Assembly (NCBI GenBank): GCA_947624975.1
Contig: CANQMP010000002.1
Coordinates: 22,878 to 86,877 of the forward strand
Direction: 5' to 3'
Length of the DNA: 64,000 bases
Source: Candidatus Gastranaerophilales bacterium
Lineage (GTDB): Bacteria; Cyanobacteriota; Vampirovibrionia; Gastranaerophilales; Gastranaerophilaceae
In this document: positions 12,626 through 21,232 of the stretch, piece by piece
Position numbering within the stretch: position 1 is the first letter of the stretch
Layout: every line of letters begins with the position of its first letter
Translations under genes and position numbers: made by a program
The notes under the pieces: generated by a model
What the model was told of the DNA's origin: nothing
Databases searched by the model: none
The model's input: the letters and a program-made list of their open reading frames with translations, nothing else

Positions 12626-14614
12626 ATGGACAGAAAATTTAAAATTTCTTCAAAATACAAACCTGCGGGCGACCAGCCAAAAGCCATAGATGAACTTGTC
12701 GAAGGGATTAATAACGGCGAAGATTCTCAAACTCTTTTGGGGATAACGGGGTCGGGCAAGACTTTTACGATAGCAAACGTGATAGAACGGGTTCAAAAGC
12801 CGACACTCATTATCGCCCACAACAAAACGCTTGCGGCACAGTTGTATAACGAGTTTAAAGAATTGTTCCCCGATAATGCTGTTGAATATTTCATAAGTTA
12901 TTACGATTACTATCAGCCCGAAGCTTACATTCCGAGAACGGATACATTTATCGAAAAATCCGCCTCGATAAACGAAGAAATTGACAGACTTCGACATAAT
13001 TCTACAAGAAGTCTTTATGAGCGAAATGACGTTATAATTGTCGCCTCTGTAAGCTGTATTTACGGTTTGGGACTGCCTGAAAATTATTTCAGAGGTTCGG
13101 TTGAAATAAATGTCGGGGATGAAATTGCCCGTGATGACTTGCTAAGACATCTTGTAAGTGTCAGATATACCAGAAATGATTTGGTTCTTGAACGTTCGAC
13201 TTTCCGTGCGAGAGGCGATATTGTTGAAATCATGCCAGCGTATGAAAAAATCGTAACGAGAATTTATTTCTTTGGCGATGAGGTGGAAAAAATCGTTAGA
13301 ATTGACAACCTAACGGGCGAAATTCTGGAAATTCCCGATAAAGTCGTCATTTATCCTGCCGTTCACTACATTTCTTACGATGAAAATGTTGATGAAACAA
13401 TAGCTTTAATCCGTCAGGAACTCCAACAGCGTTTAGCCGAGCTTAATTCAGAAAACAAATTGGTGGAAGCTCAAAGGCTTGAACAGCGTGTTAAATATGA
13501 CATTGAGATGATAAAAGAGATGGGTTATTGTTCGGGAATTGAAAATTATTCGAGAATAATAGAAAGACGTCCGATAGGTTCAGCTCCTGCTACGCTTTTA
13601 GACTATTTTCAGGGAGATTTTTTAACGGTTATTGATGAATCTCACGTGACTTTACCTCAGCTTAAAGGTATGTATCACGGCGATTCTTCAAGAAAAAATA
13701 CGCTGATAGAATACGGATTTCGTCTGCCTTGTGCAAGAGATAACAGACCGCTTAAAAATGAAGAATTTTTCAAAAAAGTTCATCAAAAAATTTATATTTC
13801 AGCGACGCCTTCAGAGTTTGAAAGAAGTACGTCATCAAGAATAGTAGAACAAATTATCCGTCCGACAGGGCTTGTCGACCCGAAAATTTCCGTTCGTCCG
13901 ATAATTTCTCAGATAGAAGATTTGAAAAAAGAAATTCAAAAACGTTCCGAAAAGAATGAACGTGTTCTTATTACAACGCTTACCAAAAGAATGGCTGAGG
14001 ATTTGACGGATTATTTTGTGCAGGAAGGAATTCGTGTGAGATACCTTCACAGTGAAATTCAATCTCTTGAACGTGTGGAAATTCTAAGGGATTTACGTTT
14101 GGGAGAATTTGACGTTCTTATCGGAGTAAATTTGTTAAGAGAAGGGCTTGATATCCCCGAAGTTTCTCTCGTCGCTATTATGGATGCGGATAAAGAGGGC
14201 TTTTTGCGTTCCGAAACGAGCCTTATACAAACAATAGGGCGTGCCGCACGTAACGCTTGCGGTGAAGTTATTATGTACGCCGACAGAATGACAGAGTCAA
14301 TGGAAAAAGCTATTTCCGAAACCGAACGCAGACGTACAATTCAGCTTGAATATAACAAAAAATACGGAATTATTCCGCAAACGATTAAAAAACCGATAGA
14401 AAATAATCTTCTCTCGCTTGTTGCAAGTTACAGGGATTTGGAAGATATAGTTGCCGAAGAAATGGTTGAAATGGGAATTGATAAAAAAGATTTGCCCAAA
14501 CTTATCGAACGGCTTGAAAAAGATATGCACAAAGCCGCAAAAATTCTTGATTTTGAACGTGCGGCAGAAATCAGAGATAAGCTCAAAAAACTCAGAGAGA
14601 TGGCGGGAAGTTAA
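12626..14614 (+). CDS. uvrB: Excinuclease ABC subunit B
   Basis: [41 protein letters not shown] region, C-terminal UVR motif. Confidence 0.98.
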
Positions 14615-15662
14615 TCGGGATTTTTACCGTAAAGGTCGTTTCTTCGGGAACACTTTTAACGCTTATTTCGCCGTTGTGCATTTTTACAAGTTCTTTGGTT
14701 ATGGTTAACCCTAAACCCGTTGAGGAATTTTTACTTTCGCCAAGCTGTTCAAATTTTTCAAATATTTTTTCATAATTTTCTTCGGAAATCCCTTTGCCGT
14801 CGTCGTTTACTGATATAACGGCAAAATTATCCTCCTGTTTGAGTTTTATCAGAATTTCCTTTTTAGCGTATTTTATTGCGTTACTCAAAAGATTAAACAA
14901 AATTTGCTGAAATTTTTGATAATCAGCCTTAATTGTACAATTTTTAATCTCGGTTTTTAAATTAATATTTTTGTTTAAAATTAAGGGTTTTAGAGTGTTC
15001 AAAACTTCATACACGGCAGTTTCCGTTTCAAATTCTCTTAAATTCAACGTCATTGAACCAGCCTCAATTTTTGACATGTCCAAAATTTCGTTAACCATTT
15101 CCAAAAGCCTTAACCCTGCTATCTTGATATCATTTATGTATTCGGATTGTTTGCCGTTGAGTTCGCCCGCAAGCCCGACAAGTTCCGTAAAGCCCAAAAT
15201 GGAATTCAGCGGAGTGCGAAGTTCATGCGATACGTGAGATAAAAAATTCGTTTTGATTTCTTCGGCTTTTCTGAGTTTTCCGTTAATTTTTGCCAGAGAT
15301 TTTGAATGAAGATTAATAATATCAAGAATTTCAATATTTTTTATTACGTCTGATATTATTGAGGTGCATAAATCAAAAAGTTCTTCATCCTTTTCGGTAA
15401 AATTTTCTCCTTTTAAAATGATTTCGCCGAATTTTACAGTTCGGTATATTAAATCCCCCCTAAGACAATTCCCTTCGATATCTTGCGGGGTTTTTGCTTT
15501 GGCATTGTAAGAATATTTGAGTTTAACGGGCGGAACGTAAAATATATAGCCCTCCTCAAACGGGATAATTTTTTTAAGCAAATCAAAGATTTCATCGCCT
15601 GCCTGCTCTGAATTGTTTATAAGAAAAAATTCCTTAATGTATTTAAGCTCTTTCAAATTCAT
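14592..15662 (-). CDS. Soluble sensor histidine kinase (HisKA plus HATPase)
   Basis: [28 protein letters not shown]; no obvious transmembrane segment. Confidence 0.9.
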
Positions 15663-16182
15663 CTCCGTCTAAATATCCGATGTAACGCAGATTTCTGTAA
15701 TATCCGTCAAAATCAAGTCCGTATCCCACAAGAAATTTGTCATCGACTTCAAAACAGAAATAATCCGGTTCAATATCCGCTTTGCGTGCAGTTTTTTTGT
15801 CAAGAAGCGAACAAAATTTTGTTGATTTAGTATGGAAATTGCAGTTTAGAAAATCTATAAGAAATTTTGCCGTAAGTCCCGTATCAACGATATCTTCCAC
15901 TATTAAAACATTTTTTCCGTTTAAATCGGGCAGAGAAATGTCAACCGCATTAACTTTTCCCGTCGTACTCGTTCCTCCGTTGTAACTTGAAAGCCTTATA
16001 AATTCCAATTTAACAGGCATGTTAAGATGCTTTACCAAATCAGTGCAAAACATTACCGCACCCTTTAAAACGCATACCACATAAACTTCTTCGTTATTAT
16101 AAAATGCGTTCATTTTTTCCGCAAGAAGTTTTATGTTTAATTGAATTTCTTCTTCGGTGTACAAAACTTTCGGATTTTTCAT
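15643..16182 (-). CDS. hpt: Hypoxanthine phosphoribosyltransferase
   Basis: VLKGA, LIVEDIVDTGLT, FLVGYGLD, YRNL. Confidence 0.95.
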   Translation of the reverse strand: MKNPKVLYTEEEIQLNIKLLAEKMNAFYNNEEVYVVCVLKGAVMFCTDLVKHLNMPVKLEFIRLSSYNGGTSTTGKVNAVDISLPDLNGKNVLIVEDIVDTGLTAKFLIDFLNCNFHTKSTKFCSLLDKKTARKADIEPDYFCFEVDDKFLVGYGLDFDGYYRNLRYIGYLDGDEFERA

Positions 16183-17447
16183 GATTTACCTCTTAAACTG
16201 ATTACGTGTGTCGACTTTTGATTAACTTTTATATTTTCGCTGATACCGACTCCGGCTGCCCAGAGAACTTCGCTGCCTTTACACAAAAATACAAGCTCAT
16301 CTCTTTTGTGGAGCGGAATTTTCTTTTCGTTCAAATATTTTTTAAGCTTTTGAGAACCGTTTGCCCCCAACGGATAAATTTTATCGCCGTCTTTGCGGTG
16401 CCTAAGCACAAAATCAATTTTGCCCGTATTTATGTAAGCTTTGAAATCACTGTCTGCGGGATATGTTTTTACCTCTTTTTCAACGGGAATTATCTCAAAA
16501 ATTTTGTTATCAAACTCATATTTGCCTTCGGATGTGATATGAATTTCCGAGCTGTTTTTTTCTTTTTTTGAAATAATTTCCGTCCCTTTAACGTTTGTAA
16601 ACAGCCATAAATTTGAACTTAAAGACATCTTTTTACCGCATTTTGAATTTTTATTTTCGTTTATAAATTTTTGGATATCCGCAATTTTCTTTTTATCATA
16701 TTCGATATTGTGTTCGCAAAGAATTCTTTGAATAAGTTTCTTTTGTCCTGCGGGTTTTGATTTGTTCAAGTCTTTTGGCAAACAGTCGTTAATAATTTCG
16801 TTATCTTCTTTTGCAAGTTCGCTCAAAGAATTTAAAGCCTCACTGACTTTCGGATTAATTTTTCGCATAAGAGGCAAAATCTCATGTCTGATAAAATTTC
16901 TGTTGTATTTAACATCGTAATTTGAGCTGTCTTTGTTTGGGAAAAGTAAGTTTTTGGCACAATAAGCTTCAATATCTTCTCTTTTTACGGACAAAAGCGG
17001 TCTGTAAAATATGTCACGATTTTCTGCAATCCCTTGCAGTCCGATACTTCCCGTACCTTTGATAATCCTGTATAATACGGTTTCTGCATTGTCATCAAAA
17101 TTATGTGCCGTAAAAACCACGTTGGATTTGAATTTTTCCGCACACCGTTTAAAAAATTCATACCTTGCTTCACGTGCGGCGGTTTCGGTTTTTTCGATAT
17201 CGTCAGGCATGACTTCCGAATAGAATTTTATTTTGCGGGATTTTGCAAAATTTTCGCAATTTTTTGCTTCCGCCAAACTCTCTTGTACCCGCCAGTTGTG
17301 GTTTAAGTGTACTGCAACAAGGTCATATTTGAGCTTGTGCAAAACATCCAACAGACACATTGAGTCGTAACCGCCCGAAAACGCAACGATGAATGTGCCT
17401 GAAAGTTCGTGTTTTTTTATAAAATTCCTGACGGTTTCCTTAATCAA
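16179..17447 (-). CDS. tilS: tRNA(Ile)-lysidine synthetase
   Basis: AFSGGYDS PP-loop, AREARY, TAHNFDD.AET, RNFIRH; adjacent to hpt. Confidence 0.93.
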   Translation of the reverse strand: MIKETVRNFIKKHELSGTFIVAFSGGYDSMCLLDVLHKLKYDLVAVHLNHNWRVQESLAEAKNCENFAKSRKIKFYSEVMPDDIEKTETAAREARYEFFKRCAEKFKSNVVFTAHNFDDNAETVLYRIIKGTGSIGLQGIAENRDIFYRPLLSVKREDIEAYCAKNLLFPNKDSSNYDVKYNRNFIRHEILPLMRKINPKVSEALNSLSELAKEDNEIINDCLPKDLNKSKPAGQKKLIQRILCEHNIEYDKKKIADIQKFINENKNSKCGKKMSLSSNLWLFTNVKGTEIISKKEKNSSEIHITSEGKYEFDNKIFEIIPVEKEVKTYPADSDFKAYINTGKIDFVLRHRKDGDKIYPLGANGSQKLKKYLNEKKIPLHKRDELVFLCKGSEVLWAAGVGISENIKVNQKSTHVISLRGKS

Positions 17448-18814
17448 TTCTGAGCCTCTTGAAATTTTTTAACGCCTTCTCTTATTTCAACGGCATCAAC
17501 ACCGAGCTGCTCAAGAGCTTTCATCGCAAGTGAATTGGGTTCGGTTGTAAGGGCAAGAAGCATGTGAGCCGATTCGATTTTTTGTTTTTTATCTTTTTTG
17601 GCAAGCTCCCAGGCTGTTTCCAGTACACGTTTTGCCCGTTCGGTGAATACAATTTGCTTGTCATAGTATTCGTTTCCGAAACCGATTAAATTTTCGACTT
17701 CCGTGCGGGCATCTTTAATATTTATTTCAAGATCGCTCAATACCTGAGTTCCGATACCCGTACCCTCGCCGATTATGCCGAGCAGAAGCATTTCCGTTCC
17801 GACAATGTTTCTTCCGAGCCTTCTTGCTTCTTCTTTGGCAAGTCTTAGTATCGTAAGTGTTTCAGGCATCTGCTTTTCAATAGGTTTAATTATGCTGTGA
17901 GCCAAATCATCATCCGGAATTTTTAATTCTTTAAGAATTTCGTATGCTATTCCTCGTTTTGTTTTTAAAAGTCCAAGAACTATGTGTTCGGGCAGGACAA
18001 CCGATGAACCGAGTTCTTTTGCCGTTTGAAGTGCCATATTCATCGTTTTGAAGGCGTTAGGAGTGAAAATTATTTGTCTGCCTTCGTATTCAGCCTGACG
18101 GTTTTGTATATTTGCAAGTTTTTCTTCAAAATTTTCGCTCGTAACTCCGAATTTCTCAAATATTTGCGATAATTGAGAATTTTTATCCTCCAAAATAGAA
18201 GATAAAATTTGTTCTGTTCCCAAAATTTCGTAATTAGAAGCACAAAGCTTTGATACTGCACGCTTAAATACGGCGGATGCTTCCTCACTGTCAAATATAT
18301 TGTCGGTTTCCTGAGCTTTGTTGCCTTCTTTATCTTTGTTATCATCAATTTCAGGGTGATAAAGACGTTTTACTTTCTTTTGAACAAGTTTTTCGAGCAA
18401 AATTTTGGATTTATAAATATCAAACCCCAAATTCTCCAGTATTTTCACGTTGTTTGACTTTTTATCGGAAAGTACCGAAAGAAATAAATGTTCGTACAAA
18501 ATTGACGGATTTCCCGATTTGTTTGCCAAATCCAGAGCTTTTTTAAGAATTTCTTTGTATTCAACCTCAAACGGCAAAGGCTGTGTGCTGCCGCTTTTTA
18601 AGGAAGTGTAATGCTGATAATGGCTTATTTCATCGACTAAATCCTCTCTTGTGATATTAAAGGATTTAAAAATTTTCAAAGAAATCCCTTTGGCTTCGTC
18701 AAAAAGTGCCAGCAAAAGATGTTCGGGGGCGACTTTTCTCGCTCCCGTTTCTTTCGCTAAGGTTTGTGATGCACTGACTACGTTTATTGCTTTTTCGGTA
18801 AATTTTTCAAACAA
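17444..18814 (-). CDS. Clp N-terminal repeat protein (six Clp repeats, no AAA+ domain)
   Basis: MFEKFTEKAI..EHLLLAL; EEARRLGRNIVGTEMLLLGIIGEGTG; FTERAKRVLE; no Walker A; TTG start. Confidence 0.85.
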   Translation of the reverse strand: MFEKFTEKAINVVSASQTLAKETGARKVAPEHLLLALFDEAKGISLKIFKSFNITREDLVDEISHYQHYTSLKSGSTQPLPFEVEYKEILKKALDLANKSGNPSILYEHLFLSVLSDKKSNNVKILENLGFDIYKSKILLEKLVQKKVKRLYHPEIDDNKDKEGNKAQETDNIFDSEEASAVFKRAVSKLCASNYEILGTEQILSSILEDKNSQLSQIFEKFGVTSENFEEKLANIQNRQAEYEGRQIIFTPNAFKTMNMALQTAKELGSSVVLPEHIVLGLLKTKRGIAYEILKELKIPDDDLAHSIIKPIEKQMPETLTILRLAKEEARRLGRNIVGTEMLLLGIIGEGTGIGTQVLSDLEINIKDARTEVENLIGFGNEYYDKQIVFTERAKRVLETAWELAKKDKKQKIESAHMLLALTTEPNSLAMKALEQLGVDAVEIREGVKKFQEAQN

Positions 18815-18817
18815 AAC

Positions 18818-19072
18818 TTATTCCTCGTCATCTAAACTTTCTACATACTGTGCGACTCTTTCAAATTCATCGTCATCGTCAATGGTTTCAAACAGGTATT
18901 CATCTCCGTTTTTGGTTAACTTCATCAAAACAAGCTCATTTGAGTCATCTTCATCATCAAGAGGCAAAAGGAGTGCATATTCCTGATTTTCCATTTCTAC
19001 AATGTCGTATAATTCAAATTTTACGACTTCGCCGTTTTCATCAATGGTTTCAATAATTTGGTCGTTCTCCAT
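18818..19072 (-). CDS. DUF1292-like small acidic protein
   Basis: IETIDENGEVVKFE..YALLLP..EFERVAQ; next to ruvX as in many bacteria. Confidence 0.75.
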   Translation of the reverse strand: MENDQIIETIDENGEVVKFELYDIVEMENQEYALLLPLDDEDDSNELVLMKLTKNGDEYLFETIDDDDEFERVAQYVESLDDEE

Positions 19073-19089
19073 AGTTTTTTTCCCTTTCT

Positions 19090-19491
19090 TTAGTTTCTGT
19101 TTAAGTATTGTTCAAGTATAATTCTGGCACTTTCAATATCGACAAGCCCTTTATTTTTGCGAAAATCTATCTTTTTGCTGCGAAGATTTTCTTCTGCCGT
19201 GTCTGATGTCAGTCTTTCATCTTCAAAAATTATTTCATAATCTTCAATTTTTGATGCGAAATTTTTGCAGTCCTGGGCTTGAAAACCTTGCGTTCCGTCC
19301 ATATTGTAAGGTATGCCGATTACAATTTTTTTTACGTTGTTTTCTTTTGCAATTTTTTGAATTTCACCAAGAGCTTTGGTTTCGGGTTCTCTCATAATGC
19401 ATGAATGACCGTTTGCAAGCACAAGAAGATAGTCGCTTAGTGCTACGCCTATTCTTTTTGTGCCTATATCAAGTGCCATTACCTTGTACAT
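19090..19491 (-). CDS. ruvX: Holliday junction resolvase-like / pre-16S rRNA nuclease YqgF
   Basis: ALDIGTKRIGVALSD, IVIGIP, DERLTS, DIESARIILEQY; ATG at 19491 overlaps the upstream TAA. Confidence 0.92.
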   Translation of the reverse strand: MYKVMALDIGTKRIGVALSDYLLVLANGHSCIMREPETKALGEIQKIAKENNVKKIVIGIPYNMDGTQGFQAQDCKNFASKIEDYEIIFEDERLTSDTAEENLRSKKIDFRKNKGLVDIESARIILEQYLNRN

Positions 19492-20984
19492 TACTTCACC
19501 CACATTTCTTCTATTGCATGAACTTTTTCTGCATCTTTATTTGCAAAATAGTATTCATAAATACTTTTGCGGATTATATTTTTGAAAAATTCCCGCACAA
19601 GTTCTTTATCATTATATAAGGAATATAAATTTTGTGCAGTTTTTTCATATCCGGAAAGATGTTTTAAAACGCATGTATTCAATATTCTTTTTGTCCAAAC
19701 GTCGTATTCCTCCGCAAAAAATACTTTTTCAAGGTTTTCGTCAATAATTTTTTCGTAATCCTGTGCGGAAGTCTTGTTAAGAAGTTTTAAAAATTCGTCA
19801 AACTCGTCACTGTAATCACTGTCTAAAAACCAAAAATCAGTGAAATCGGACTTCAAAATTTCTTCAAATTCTTCATTAGAAAGCTTTTTGGCTTTGTAAT
19901 TTGTTTTTAATTCGGCAGGTTCGATGTCTGATAGAAGATTTCGCCAGCAAACGTATTCATAGGGCATCTTTGCTCCCGAAAGCTCGGCGTTTAGTAAAAT
20001 CGCTTTTAAATATTCGGGCTTTAAATCAACAGCCCTTTGTCCCCTGTAAAACCGTTCTATAATGGCATTACATTCAAATTGCGAAATTTCGTTAAACCCG
20101 AAACAGTCCCTTACCCCTTTGTAATCGTCAATTACAACCGCAACAAAACGAACTTTCCCAAACTCGTTTATTCTTGAAAAAATTACCGCCTGACATCCGT
20201 GCCCGTCTGGGTAGGTTATGCAGAATTTATGCGGTTTTGAGCTTTTTAAAAGGTTTTTGTAAAATTCATGGGCATTATCTTCACGAATACCCGAAAGTTT
20301 TAATGTTGAAATATTTTTTTTAATTAACGGTACAAGATTTTCATCCGCATAATTCAAATAATCGTTGAGTGCGTGGAAAGCAAGGTGTGATTTGGAATTC
20401 CCGAGTATATTTAGTGCGTGTTTACCGAGTTCGGTACCGGGTTCGGATAAAAACACGGGGATGAGCATATTTGCAAGCTCGTCGTTTGAATAATCATTTG
20501 CCAATGAGTCTAATAAAACGATTTTATCACTTTCGGGCAGCGAGTTTAAAAAATCCAAAAAATCTATTTGAACTTCGGGGTTAATAATTGCACTGCCGAG
20601 AATTTTTTCGGTATCAGAATTAAGAAATTCATCGGGATTTTCAAGATATTTGTCGCACTCATCGTAAGACCAATTTGTATCAATGTCACGCAGCAGGTCA
20701 AGTGAAAATATTTTTGCCTGATTTGAAGAAAGGTTGTTTTTTATAATTCCCCACAAATGTTCCAATAACTCATCTTTCGGGCAGTACCTTTTGAGCATAA
20801 ACTTTATAAGTTCGGGCGAGGAGCAGTTAATCTCTTTCAAAAGCAGCTTGACGATAATTTTTTTATCGCTTTGCAAATCAAGAGTTCTGAAATGAACTTC
20901 AAAATTATCAAAATTTTTCTCATCTTTGAGAGCATTGATAATTCTTGCGATTTCCGCTTTTATCTCAAAAGGATTAAGTTCCAT
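19491..20984 (-). CDS. Hypothetical protein, helical/HEAT-like
   Basis: 497-aa ORF in the gene run with coupled start/stop; no family recognised. Confidence 0.75.
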   Translation of the reverse strand: MELNPFEIKAEIARIINALKDEKNFDNFEVHFRTLDLQSDKKIIVKLLLKEINCSSPELIKFMLKRYCPKDELLEHLWGIIKNNLSSNQAKIFSLDLLRDIDTNWSYDECDKYLENPDEFLNSDTEKILGSAIINPEVQIDFLDFLNSLPESDKIVLLDSLANDYSNDELANMLIPVFLSEPGTELGKHALNILGNSKSHLAFHALNDYLNYADENLVPLIKKNISTLKLSGIREDNAHEFYKNLLKSSKPHKFCITYPDGHGCQAVIFSRINEFGKVRFVAVVIDDYKGVRDCFGFNEISQFECNAIIERFYRGQRAVDLKPEYLKAILLNAELSGAKMPYEYVCWRNLLSDIEPAELKTNYKAKKLSNEEFEEILKSDFTDFWFLDSDYSDEFDEFLKLLNKTSAQDYEKIIDENLEKVFFAEEYDVWTKRILNTCVLKHLSGYEKTAQNLYSLYNDKELVREFFKNIIRKSIYEYYFANKDAEKVHAIEEMWVK

Positions 20985-21232
20985 TATCTTGCTTTCCCCC
21001 AGAAGGCATCCAGAATTTGTTGAGCTTCTGCAGAAGGCATTCTGTCATTCAGAATAAGATATTGTACGGCAATCATTGCACATTCGGAACAAATATTTAC
21101 CCCCGGACCTTGAACCATTTTTAAAACTTGTGTGTTCGGACGTCCGCAAAAACTGCAATAAACAAGTTCCTGCTTTTCATCGCTTTTCTTTTCCCGTTTT
21201 GAACCTAATTTTACGACTTTGTCTTTTGACAT
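20984..21232 (-). CDS. Stand-alone ClpX C4-type zinc-binding domain protein
   Basis: [33 protein letters not shown]. Confidence 0.85.

Follow-up and report, generated by a model that had tools for sequence, protein, structure and literature searches.

A conserved protein of three tandem ClpC-type N-domains without ATPase modules in the Gastranaerophilales

The triple N-domain gene and its product

The stretch of DNA analysed here, referred to below as the window, comprises 64,000 nucleotides of a Candidatus Gastranaerophilales bacterium (GCA_947624975.1, contig CANQMP010000002.1, positions 22,878 to 86,877). Its minus strand carries a gene for a protein made up almost entirely of three tandem N-domains (ND1, ND2 and ND3) of the kind found in the ATPase ClpC. 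The host genome assembly is 1.9 Mb in 59 contigs, with a completeness of 99.95%. The gene and the parts of its product are as follows, in the order in which they are read.

18822..18826, minus strand: predicted ribosome-binding site GAGGA, 7 nt 5′ of the TTG start, read from the sequence
17444..18814, minus strand: triple Clp N-domain gene (P0001), open reading frame (ORF) of 456 amino acids (aa)
18371..18814, minus strand: ND1, residues 1-148, Clp_N repeats 1 and 2
18626-18769, minus strand: Clp_N repeat 1 (Pfam)
18386-18538, minus strand: Clp_N repeat 2 (Pfam)
18290..18370, minus strand: linker 1, residues 149-175, acidic and variable apart from one motif
18350..18358, minus strand: HPE motif, H153-P154-E155, within linker 1 (orthologue alignment)
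17876..18289, minus strand: ND2, residues 176-313, Clp_N repeats 3 and 4
18116-18235, minus strand: Clp_N repeat 3 (Pfam)
17891-18034, minus strand: Clp_N repeat 4 (Pfam)
17447..17875, minus strand: ND3, residues 314-456, Clp_N repeats 5 and 6
17681-17839, minus strand: Clp_N repeat 5 (Pfam)
17465-17608, minus strand: Clp_N repeat 6 (Pfam)

The whole protein matches the Pfam family Clp_N (PF02861) with an E-value (E) of 7e-58 in six stretches, which correspond to paired copies of the roughly 53-residue Clp_N repeat, and in a six-frame scan of the genome all six repeats were individually above the curated Pfam cut-off. The three N-domains span the entire protein except for one 27-residue linker. 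No match to AAA, AAA_2, AAA_lid_9 or ClpB_D2-small was found among the Pfam and NCBIfam models, and a pattern scan for Walker A (GxxxxGK[ST]) and Walker B (hhhhDE) motifs was empty. The only NCBIfam matches are to the N-terminal parts of the ClpB, ClpA, ClpV, ClpK and ClpG models, all far below their cut-offs. A Pfam histone-fold match (PF00808, residues 391-422, positions 17549-17644, E 2.8e-6) was rejected as spurious, as no stretch passes individually. Many orthologues carry this label as a precomputed annotation, and the match is probably a chance likeness to the helix-loop-helix of repeat 6.

The TTG start (18814..18812) and TGA stop (17446..17444) enclose a product with a predicted size of ~51.5 kDa, and the ribosome-binding site falls within the 3′-end of the preceding DUF1292 gene. 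This site supports the assigned start. In the orthologue alignment an ATG occupies the equivalent residue and gives the ClpC-like N-terminus MFE[KR]FTEKA, so that the start is considered sound.

An AlphaFold2 model computed from an 18-sequence alignment (mean predicted local distance difference test score, pLDDT, 78.5) contains 24 helices in three groups of eight, so that each repeat pair forms one 8-helix N-domain. Residues 158-173 of linker 1 are disordered in the model (pLDDT <50). In Foldseek searches, domain-sized units of the model align to ClpC N-domains with a target template modelling (TM) score of 0.86-0.93 and a root-mean-square deviation of 1.2-1.5 Å; the plastid proteins ClpT1/T2, the ClpD N-domain and the C-terminal domain of mycobacterial ClpC2 all rank below them.

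A protein with the N-domains of ClpC and no motor might have arisen through splitting or frameshifting of clpC, or through an error of assembly, with the AAA+ part lying elsewhere; the resemblance of ND3 to a ClpC N-domain is the only point that favours this. The host encodes a complete ClpC of 830 aa, which has an N-domain (two Clp_N repeats) as well as AAA, AAA_lid_9, AAA_2 and D2-small domains, and a complete ClpB of 866 aa. Across the genome, AAA_2 is confined to ClpB, ClpC and ClpX, and AAA_lid_9 to ClpB and ClpC; every such domain is accounted for and there is no orphan Hsp100 ATPase. Furthermore, a genuine ClpC has one N-domain, not three, and the identical ~450-aa architecture recurs in >150 genomes from independent assemblies. 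Since ClpC and ClpB are both intact and no Hsp100 half lacking an N-domain is present, a split-clpC artefact is excluded with near certainty. The host also encodes ClpX, the gene of which adjoins clpP, and two ClpP paralogues.

Relatives, distribution and domain origin

All three domains are closer to ClpC than to ClpB, both by BLAST and by profile-profile comparison with hhalign. Even ND1 shares 33-42% identity with ClpC and 18-31% with ClpB, with hhalign E-values of 3e-35 and 9e-25, respectively. The sequence-only reading of this locus had placed the third domain closest to ClpC, and this is borne out: identity to the N-domain of the host's own ClpC is 47% for ND3, 33% for ND1 and 24% for ND2. 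Compared with ClpC N-domains in general, ND3 is 47-52% identical, and its closest solved structure is the N-domain of Arabidopsis chloroplast ClpC1 (5gui, E 1.1e-33). That reading's description of six Clp repeats forming three N-domains, with no Walker motifs, is likewise confirmed by the searches above.

In a maximum-likelihood tree of the domains, ND2 and ND3 are each monophyletic (support 100/100 and 99/91) and both fall among ClpC N-domains, which indicates that the three-domain order is older than the split of the families that carry it. ND1 clusters with ClpB N-domains in the same tree (100/99). A chimeric origin from ClpB and ClpC was considered on this basis and rejected, as the grouping is probably a long-branch effect; as ND1 scores closer to ClpC by BLAST and profile-profile comparison, the three domains more likely arose by triplication of one ClpC-type domain than as a chimera.

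Full-length orthologues of ~450 aa are found throughout the host's own family (123/123 genomes, 26 genera), in 14 of the 16 genomes that cover nine more families of the order (39-46% identity), and in both genomes of one further family of the class (37-39% identity). Congeners of the host carry the gene in 24/24 genomes searched, at 73-88% identity, three of them as pieces only owing to contig ends or a stop codon. No orthologue was detected in any of the nine remaining Vampirovibrionia families at E 1e-30 or better, nor in ~177 other Cyanobacteriota genomes at E 1e-38 or better. Near-identical database proteins are labelled ‘Fusobacterium sp. CAG:439’ and ‘Clostridium sp. CAG:768’, and ‘Candidatus Melainabacteria’ predominates in the ESM Atlas clusters of the triple protein, in keeping with a gut member of the Gastranaerophilales. 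The DNA also occurs in rabbit gut metagenome runs, which may be the sample of origin, whereas no RNA run was listed for it.

Comparison with the congeners gives a nonsynonymous rate (dN) of ~0.10-0.19 with saturated synonymous sites (dS) in ND1, ND2 and ND3 alike. By this measure the gene is maintained and functional, with all three domains under purifying selection. Mean pairwise identity among 16 divergent orthologues rises from 0.24 in the linker to 0.32 in ND1, 0.42 in ND2 and 0.50 in ND3; ND1, which is basic (pI 8.9), is the fastest-evolving domain. One genome of the same genus contains an extra, single N-domain-like frame (G011:C2:50729-51136; 253 aa, 35% identical to ND3, with one in-frame TAG), which may be a decaying or recently acquired additional copy.

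ATPase-less proteins with Clp_N repeats are already known, in the form of ClpT, ClpC2/ClpC3 and multi-repeat database proteins, while the triple form is unstudied. The database entries named ‘Clp protease N-terminal domain-containing protein’ are likewise tandem and ATPase-less, with 2 to 12 Clp_N repeats, and they occur in Nostoc, Actinoplanes, Acidobacteriota, Papaver and metagenomes, reaching 1762 aa with 12 repeats. These proteins, none of which has been characterised, are not orthologous to the triple protein and align to it domain by domain only; the triple family differs from them in its fixed domain order, its domain-specific motifs and its clade-restricted, near-universal distribution. 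Our literature search found neither a characterised tandem N-domain protein nor a paper combining Melainabacteria and ClpC.

Compared with ClpC itself, the triple protein shares the fold, in which a double Clp_N repeat gives eight helices. In addition, ND3 shares the G-T-E and F-T-P pocket motifs and the equivalent of Lys85, and ND1 shares the ClpC-like N-terminus MFEKFTEKA. It differs in having three tandem domains instead of one, in lacking AAA+ modules, M-domain and ClpP-binding loop, and in having half of its pocket positions altered (P-E-H, Y-E-H, S-A-H).

Mycobacterial ClpC2 and ClpC3 resemble the triple protein in being ATPase-less with a ClpC-type N-domain, and they keep one of two phospho-arginine (pArg) pockets, as ND2 and ND3 do. 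They are described as competing with ClpC1 for ligands (PMC10030653, PMC10864484). ClpC2 combines a single C-terminal N-domain-like module with an N-terminal domain for oligomerisation and operator DNA binding, whereas the triple protein consists of N-domains only. The mycobacterial proteins belong to another phylum and are not orthologous; their PDB chains are weak partial matches (9p2p, E 5.8e-9; 8ad9, E 8.4e-7; 8b9o, E 1e-7), and the triple protein is much closer to ClpC.

The plastid proteins ClpT1 and ClpT2 are also N-domain-only and attach to the ClpP ring (PMC7966870), and ClpT1 is also a binding partner of Hsp100 proteins and a modulator of ATPase activity (PMC4243950). By analogy, the triple protein could be an accessory of the ClpP core that docks on the ring and controls core assembly or the access of chaperones. 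ClpT belongs to a Clp system of cyanobacterial descent, in an organelle derived from the same phylum as the host (PMC7966870), and its structures are detectable relatives in sequence (4y0b, E 3e-8; 4y0c, E 2.2e-7) as well as in Foldseek; the two ClpP paralogues of the genome would also suit such a role. However, the triple protein is far closer to ClpC N-domains (E 1e-33), ClpT is a single domain with 23-29% identity in the Foldseek alignments and is described as unique to algae and plants (PMC7966870), and there is no synteny with clpP. We therefore regard a ClpT-like role as quite unlikely.

Conserved residues and gene neighbourhood

Pocket positions were assigned by alignment to the numbering of Staphylococcus aureus and Bacillus subtilis ClpC. 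In ClpC, E32 and E106 are the crucial determinants of pArg binding, and the N-domain pockets also touch the M-domains and MecA; T7 and R9 touch the neighbouring M-domain, while K85-D356 is the main anchor of the N-domain to AAA1 (PMC12583610). In ClpC2, pArg cannot be bound without a Thr in the pocket (preprint 10.64898/2026.06.30.735635). Residues F2 and F80 form part of the cyclomarin site, according to the titles of PDB entries 3wdd and 3wde.

The E32-type pocket is complete in ND2 (G-T200-E201-Q and F-T251-P252) and in ND3 (G339-T340-E341 and F390-T391), with the residues invariant or nearly so in both. Although it is the domain most diverged from ClpC, ND2 has strongly conserved family motifs: NYEILGTEQ (T200, E201), SR..EY (R239, E242), IIFTPNAF (T251, P252) and LK.K.GIAY. 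It has lost the T7 and K85 equivalents, and the K85 position is occupied by F255. The K85 equivalent of ND3, K395, is invariant. ND1 retains F2, T6, K8 and F82, which correspond to F2, T7, R9 and F80 of ClpC, and F82 is invariant; it also retains both pocket Glu residues but not the pocket Thr, with P-E-H and Y-E-H in place of G-T-E-H. None of the three domains retains a full E106-type pocket. The site reads P/Y-E in ND1, P-E without a Thr7 equivalent in ND2, and S-A in ND3 of the host genus (S415-A416), where most other families have S-E. The conservation of the pArg pocket, which the sequence-only reading had listed as a check, is divided, with the E32-type pocket intact in two domains and ND1 and every E106-type pocket eroded.

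Within the otherwise variable linker 1, H153-P154-E155 is identical in 18/18 aligned orthologues. The invariant K..K...HPE suggested a J-domain, a candidate that was rejected as there is no DnaJ match even at E 10.

The phenylalanines of ND1 raise the possibility that the protein acts as a sponge for natural products that target N-domains (cyclic peptides or other toxins) and would otherwise deregulate ClpC, in the manner of ClpC2/ClpC3. The equivalents of both F2 and F80 of the cyclomarin groove are present in ND1. The gut is rich in peptide antibiotics, which is counted in favour of such a role. ClpC2 is described as binding cyclomarin and rufomycin and protecting ClpC1 (PMC10030653; preprint 10.64898/2026.06.30.735635). 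Against this, both groove phenylalanines are kept in ND1 only, the strongest conservation is in the polar pockets of ND2 and ND3 and not in the groove, and the gene lies in a housekeeping-type run without a regulator of its own, unlike the strongly inducible clpC2. A sponge function thus appears improbable.

The run in question contains eight genes in the order stand-alone ClpX zinc finger, 497-aa protein, ruvX, DUF1292, triple N-domain, tilS, hpt and histidine kinase. The members that bear on the interpretation are listed below.

14592..21232, minus strand: eight-gene co-directional run with overlapping or near-abutting junctions
20984-21232, minus strand: stand-alone ClpX zinc-binding domain protein of 82 aa (PF06689, E 4.9e-14), heading the run
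19491-20984, minus strand: 497-aa protein with no Pfam or NCBIfam match
16179..17447, minus strand: tilS, tRNA lysidine synthetase (PF01171 and TilS_C)

The sole terminator-like site on the minus strand (14379..14363) lies past the last gene of the run. The triple N-domain gene and tilS share 4 nt, TTGA, in which the TGA stop of the former and the TTG start of the latter overlap. The sequence-only reading had noted this overlap and it is real, as is the identity of TilS. The arrangement of the eight genes is kept only in the host's family; elsewhere the flanking genes encode lysyl-tRNA synthetase (LysRS), Mur ligase, amidohydrolase, SmpB, NIF3, a PHP protein and others. As the synteny is confined to one family, the overlap with tilS is a local arrangement without functional weight, and a functional link through synteny was rejected because the neighbours in other families are unrelated.

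The same evidence bears on a function outside Clp proteolysis, in which the domains would be generic peptide-binding modules serving, for instance, tRNA or rRNA maturation together with TilS, RuvX and DUF1292. The overlap with tilS is of the translational-coupling type, the run places ruvX and DUF1292 upstream and tilS and hpt downstream, some congeners have the stop directly followed by an in-frame tilS start, and ClpN repeats fused to vWA domains occur in conflict systems (PMC7159879). However, the neighbours in the nine other families are unrelated to this run and to each other. Moreover, none of the 150 best relatives is fused to TilS or to a domain of another kind, and all ten longer relatives that were scanned contain Clp_N only. 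We consider a role of this kind doubtful, and about as improbable as the sponge.

Frames of 872-884 aa that run through the triple gene and tilS in eight congeners were examined as possible TilS fusions. The five inspected are each two ORFs with a TAG between them, and under translation table 11 this arrangement is not a fusion. In these five loci (L021-L025, from congeners G009, G018, G023, G017 and G008; frames of 875-883 aa) the TAG is followed immediately by the in-frame GTG or TTG start of tilS. Read-through would yield a fusion protein, and nothing supports read-through.

The stand-alone zinc-binding domain gene at the head of the run is order-wide (60/61 genomes). In a sample of the class it occurs in 32/32 genomes of the host's family, in 2/2 of the further family of the class that has the triple gene, and in 0/116 others, which is the same family pattern as that of the triple gene. 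This shared phyletic pattern is suggestive; since related genomes are not independent, it may reflect one or two ancestral events only. Genome G032 of the same order retains the zinc-binding domain gene, and its congener G038 carries the triple N-domain gene at 41% identity. The 497-aa gene, the start of which overlaps the stop of the zinc-binding domain gene by 1 nt, adjoins that gene across the host's family at 35-64% identity. In the further family, a gene for a 514-aa hydrophobic, membrane-protein-like product lies directly upstream of the triple gene (L039:3038-4582, L040:3363-4907). The two 514-aa proteins are 48% identical to each other and have no Pfam match. They were considered as homologues of the 497-aa protein of the window and are not homologous to it.

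Possible role in Clp proteolysis

The most reasonable reading of these sequences is a non-catalytic binding role in Clp proteostasis. More specifically, and tentatively, we suggest that the triple protein may be a motor-less, multivalent mimic of the ClpC N-domain that competes for or holds ClpC ligands and so tunes ClpC-dependent degradation; this may well be the case, but we would stop short of calling it probable. Mimicry is favoured because ND3 is the most constrained and most ClpC-like domain, including K395, because ND2 and ND3 each preserve exactly one pocket, because ND1 preserves a free ClpC N-terminus and the groove phenylalanines, and because the single-domain analogues ClpC2/ClpC3 and ClpT1 act in this way. 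We infer the binding events, the link with ClpC and the direction of the effect, whether buffer or holdase on the one hand or activator on the other.

Under this proposal, a soluble protein without a motor would act through binding alone. ND1 would offer a free ClpC-like N-terminus and two hydrophobic-groove phenylalanines. ND2 and ND3 would each offer one Thr/Glu pocket of the type that in ClpC binds pArg, MecA and the M-domain, and the Lys85 equivalent of ND3 would correspond to the residue by which the ClpC N-domain is anchored to the AAA1 ring. The ligands of the ClpC head engaged in this way, at up to three sites per molecule, could be short acidic or phosphorylated tags, unfolded segments, or the M-domain/AAA1 surface of ClpC. 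Clients would be held or diverted, and the amount degraded by ClpC-ClpP would be tuned as a result.

The sequence-only reading had proposed a multivalent adaptor or decoy for Clp proteolysis. What stands of it is a genuine, conserved, stand-alone N-domain protein, while the pArg route lacks support. The McsB-type kinase (PF00217) was not found in the host genome or in any of the 61 genomes of the order that were searched, and at most one of the two pockets is intact per domain, in ND2 and ND3 only. A strict phospho-arginine role is weakened, on these sequence grounds, by the absence of McsB together with the half-degraded pockets. As neither McsB, MecA nor ClpS was found in the host genome, the classical pArg pathway is unlikely; mycobacteria likewise have no known arginine kinase and yet carry pArg (preprint 10.64898/2026.06.30.735635). 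Replacement of ClpS by the triple protein was also considered. ClpS is found in 0/32 genomes of the host's family, but it is present in 2/2 genomes of the further family, which has the triple gene, and it is also absent from several families without the gene; there is no complementary pattern, and the idea was rejected.

Several observations weigh against N-domain mimicry. Neither McsB, MecA nor ClpS was found in a nearly complete genome, which leaves the N-domains without their customary ligands. No more than half of the pockets have survived intact, Ala stands at the Glu106 position of ND3 in the host genus, and ND3 lacks equivalents of both Thr7 and Arg9. Outside one family no conserved Clp gene adjoins the triple N-domain gene. 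The gene was not found in G032, a genome that is 99% complete, where the best match is the genome's own ClpC. Finally, the predicted TM score (pTM) of 0.44 for the AlphaFold2 model is in line with beads on a string and is uninformative about a fixed three-domain arrangement.

A broader possibility is that the triple N-domain protein and the stand-alone ClpX zinc finger are docking domains acting in trans, which together would constitute a new layer of Clp control over ClpC and ClpX in a lineage without MecA, McsB and ClpS. Both motor-less modules would then have arisen together, with the same clade distribution. The triple protein might occupy the M-domain/AAA1 sites through which ClpC is locked at rest by its own N-domain or, alternatively, a tag other than pArg might be read via the ND2/ND3 pockets and the invariant HPE motif. 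We regard this extension as unlikely, if somewhat less so than the ClpT-like role.

Single-domain proteins of this kind, ClpT in plastids and ClpC2/ClpC3 in mycobacteria, have been recognised only recently as regulators or protectors of Clp proteases. The fixed three-domain version described here belongs to the core genes of an entire order of uncultured gut relatives of cyanobacteria, where it is nearly universal, and this lineage has none of the known ClpC adaptors. If the triple protein does regulate ClpC, it would reveal how a central protease is kept under control in these bacteria, and it would provide a natural case of multivalent N-domain mimicry, with a bearing on the release of ClpC from its resting state and on antibacterials directed at ClpC. 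It would, in addition, open a first way into the function of the many multi-Clp_N database proteins that have not been studied.

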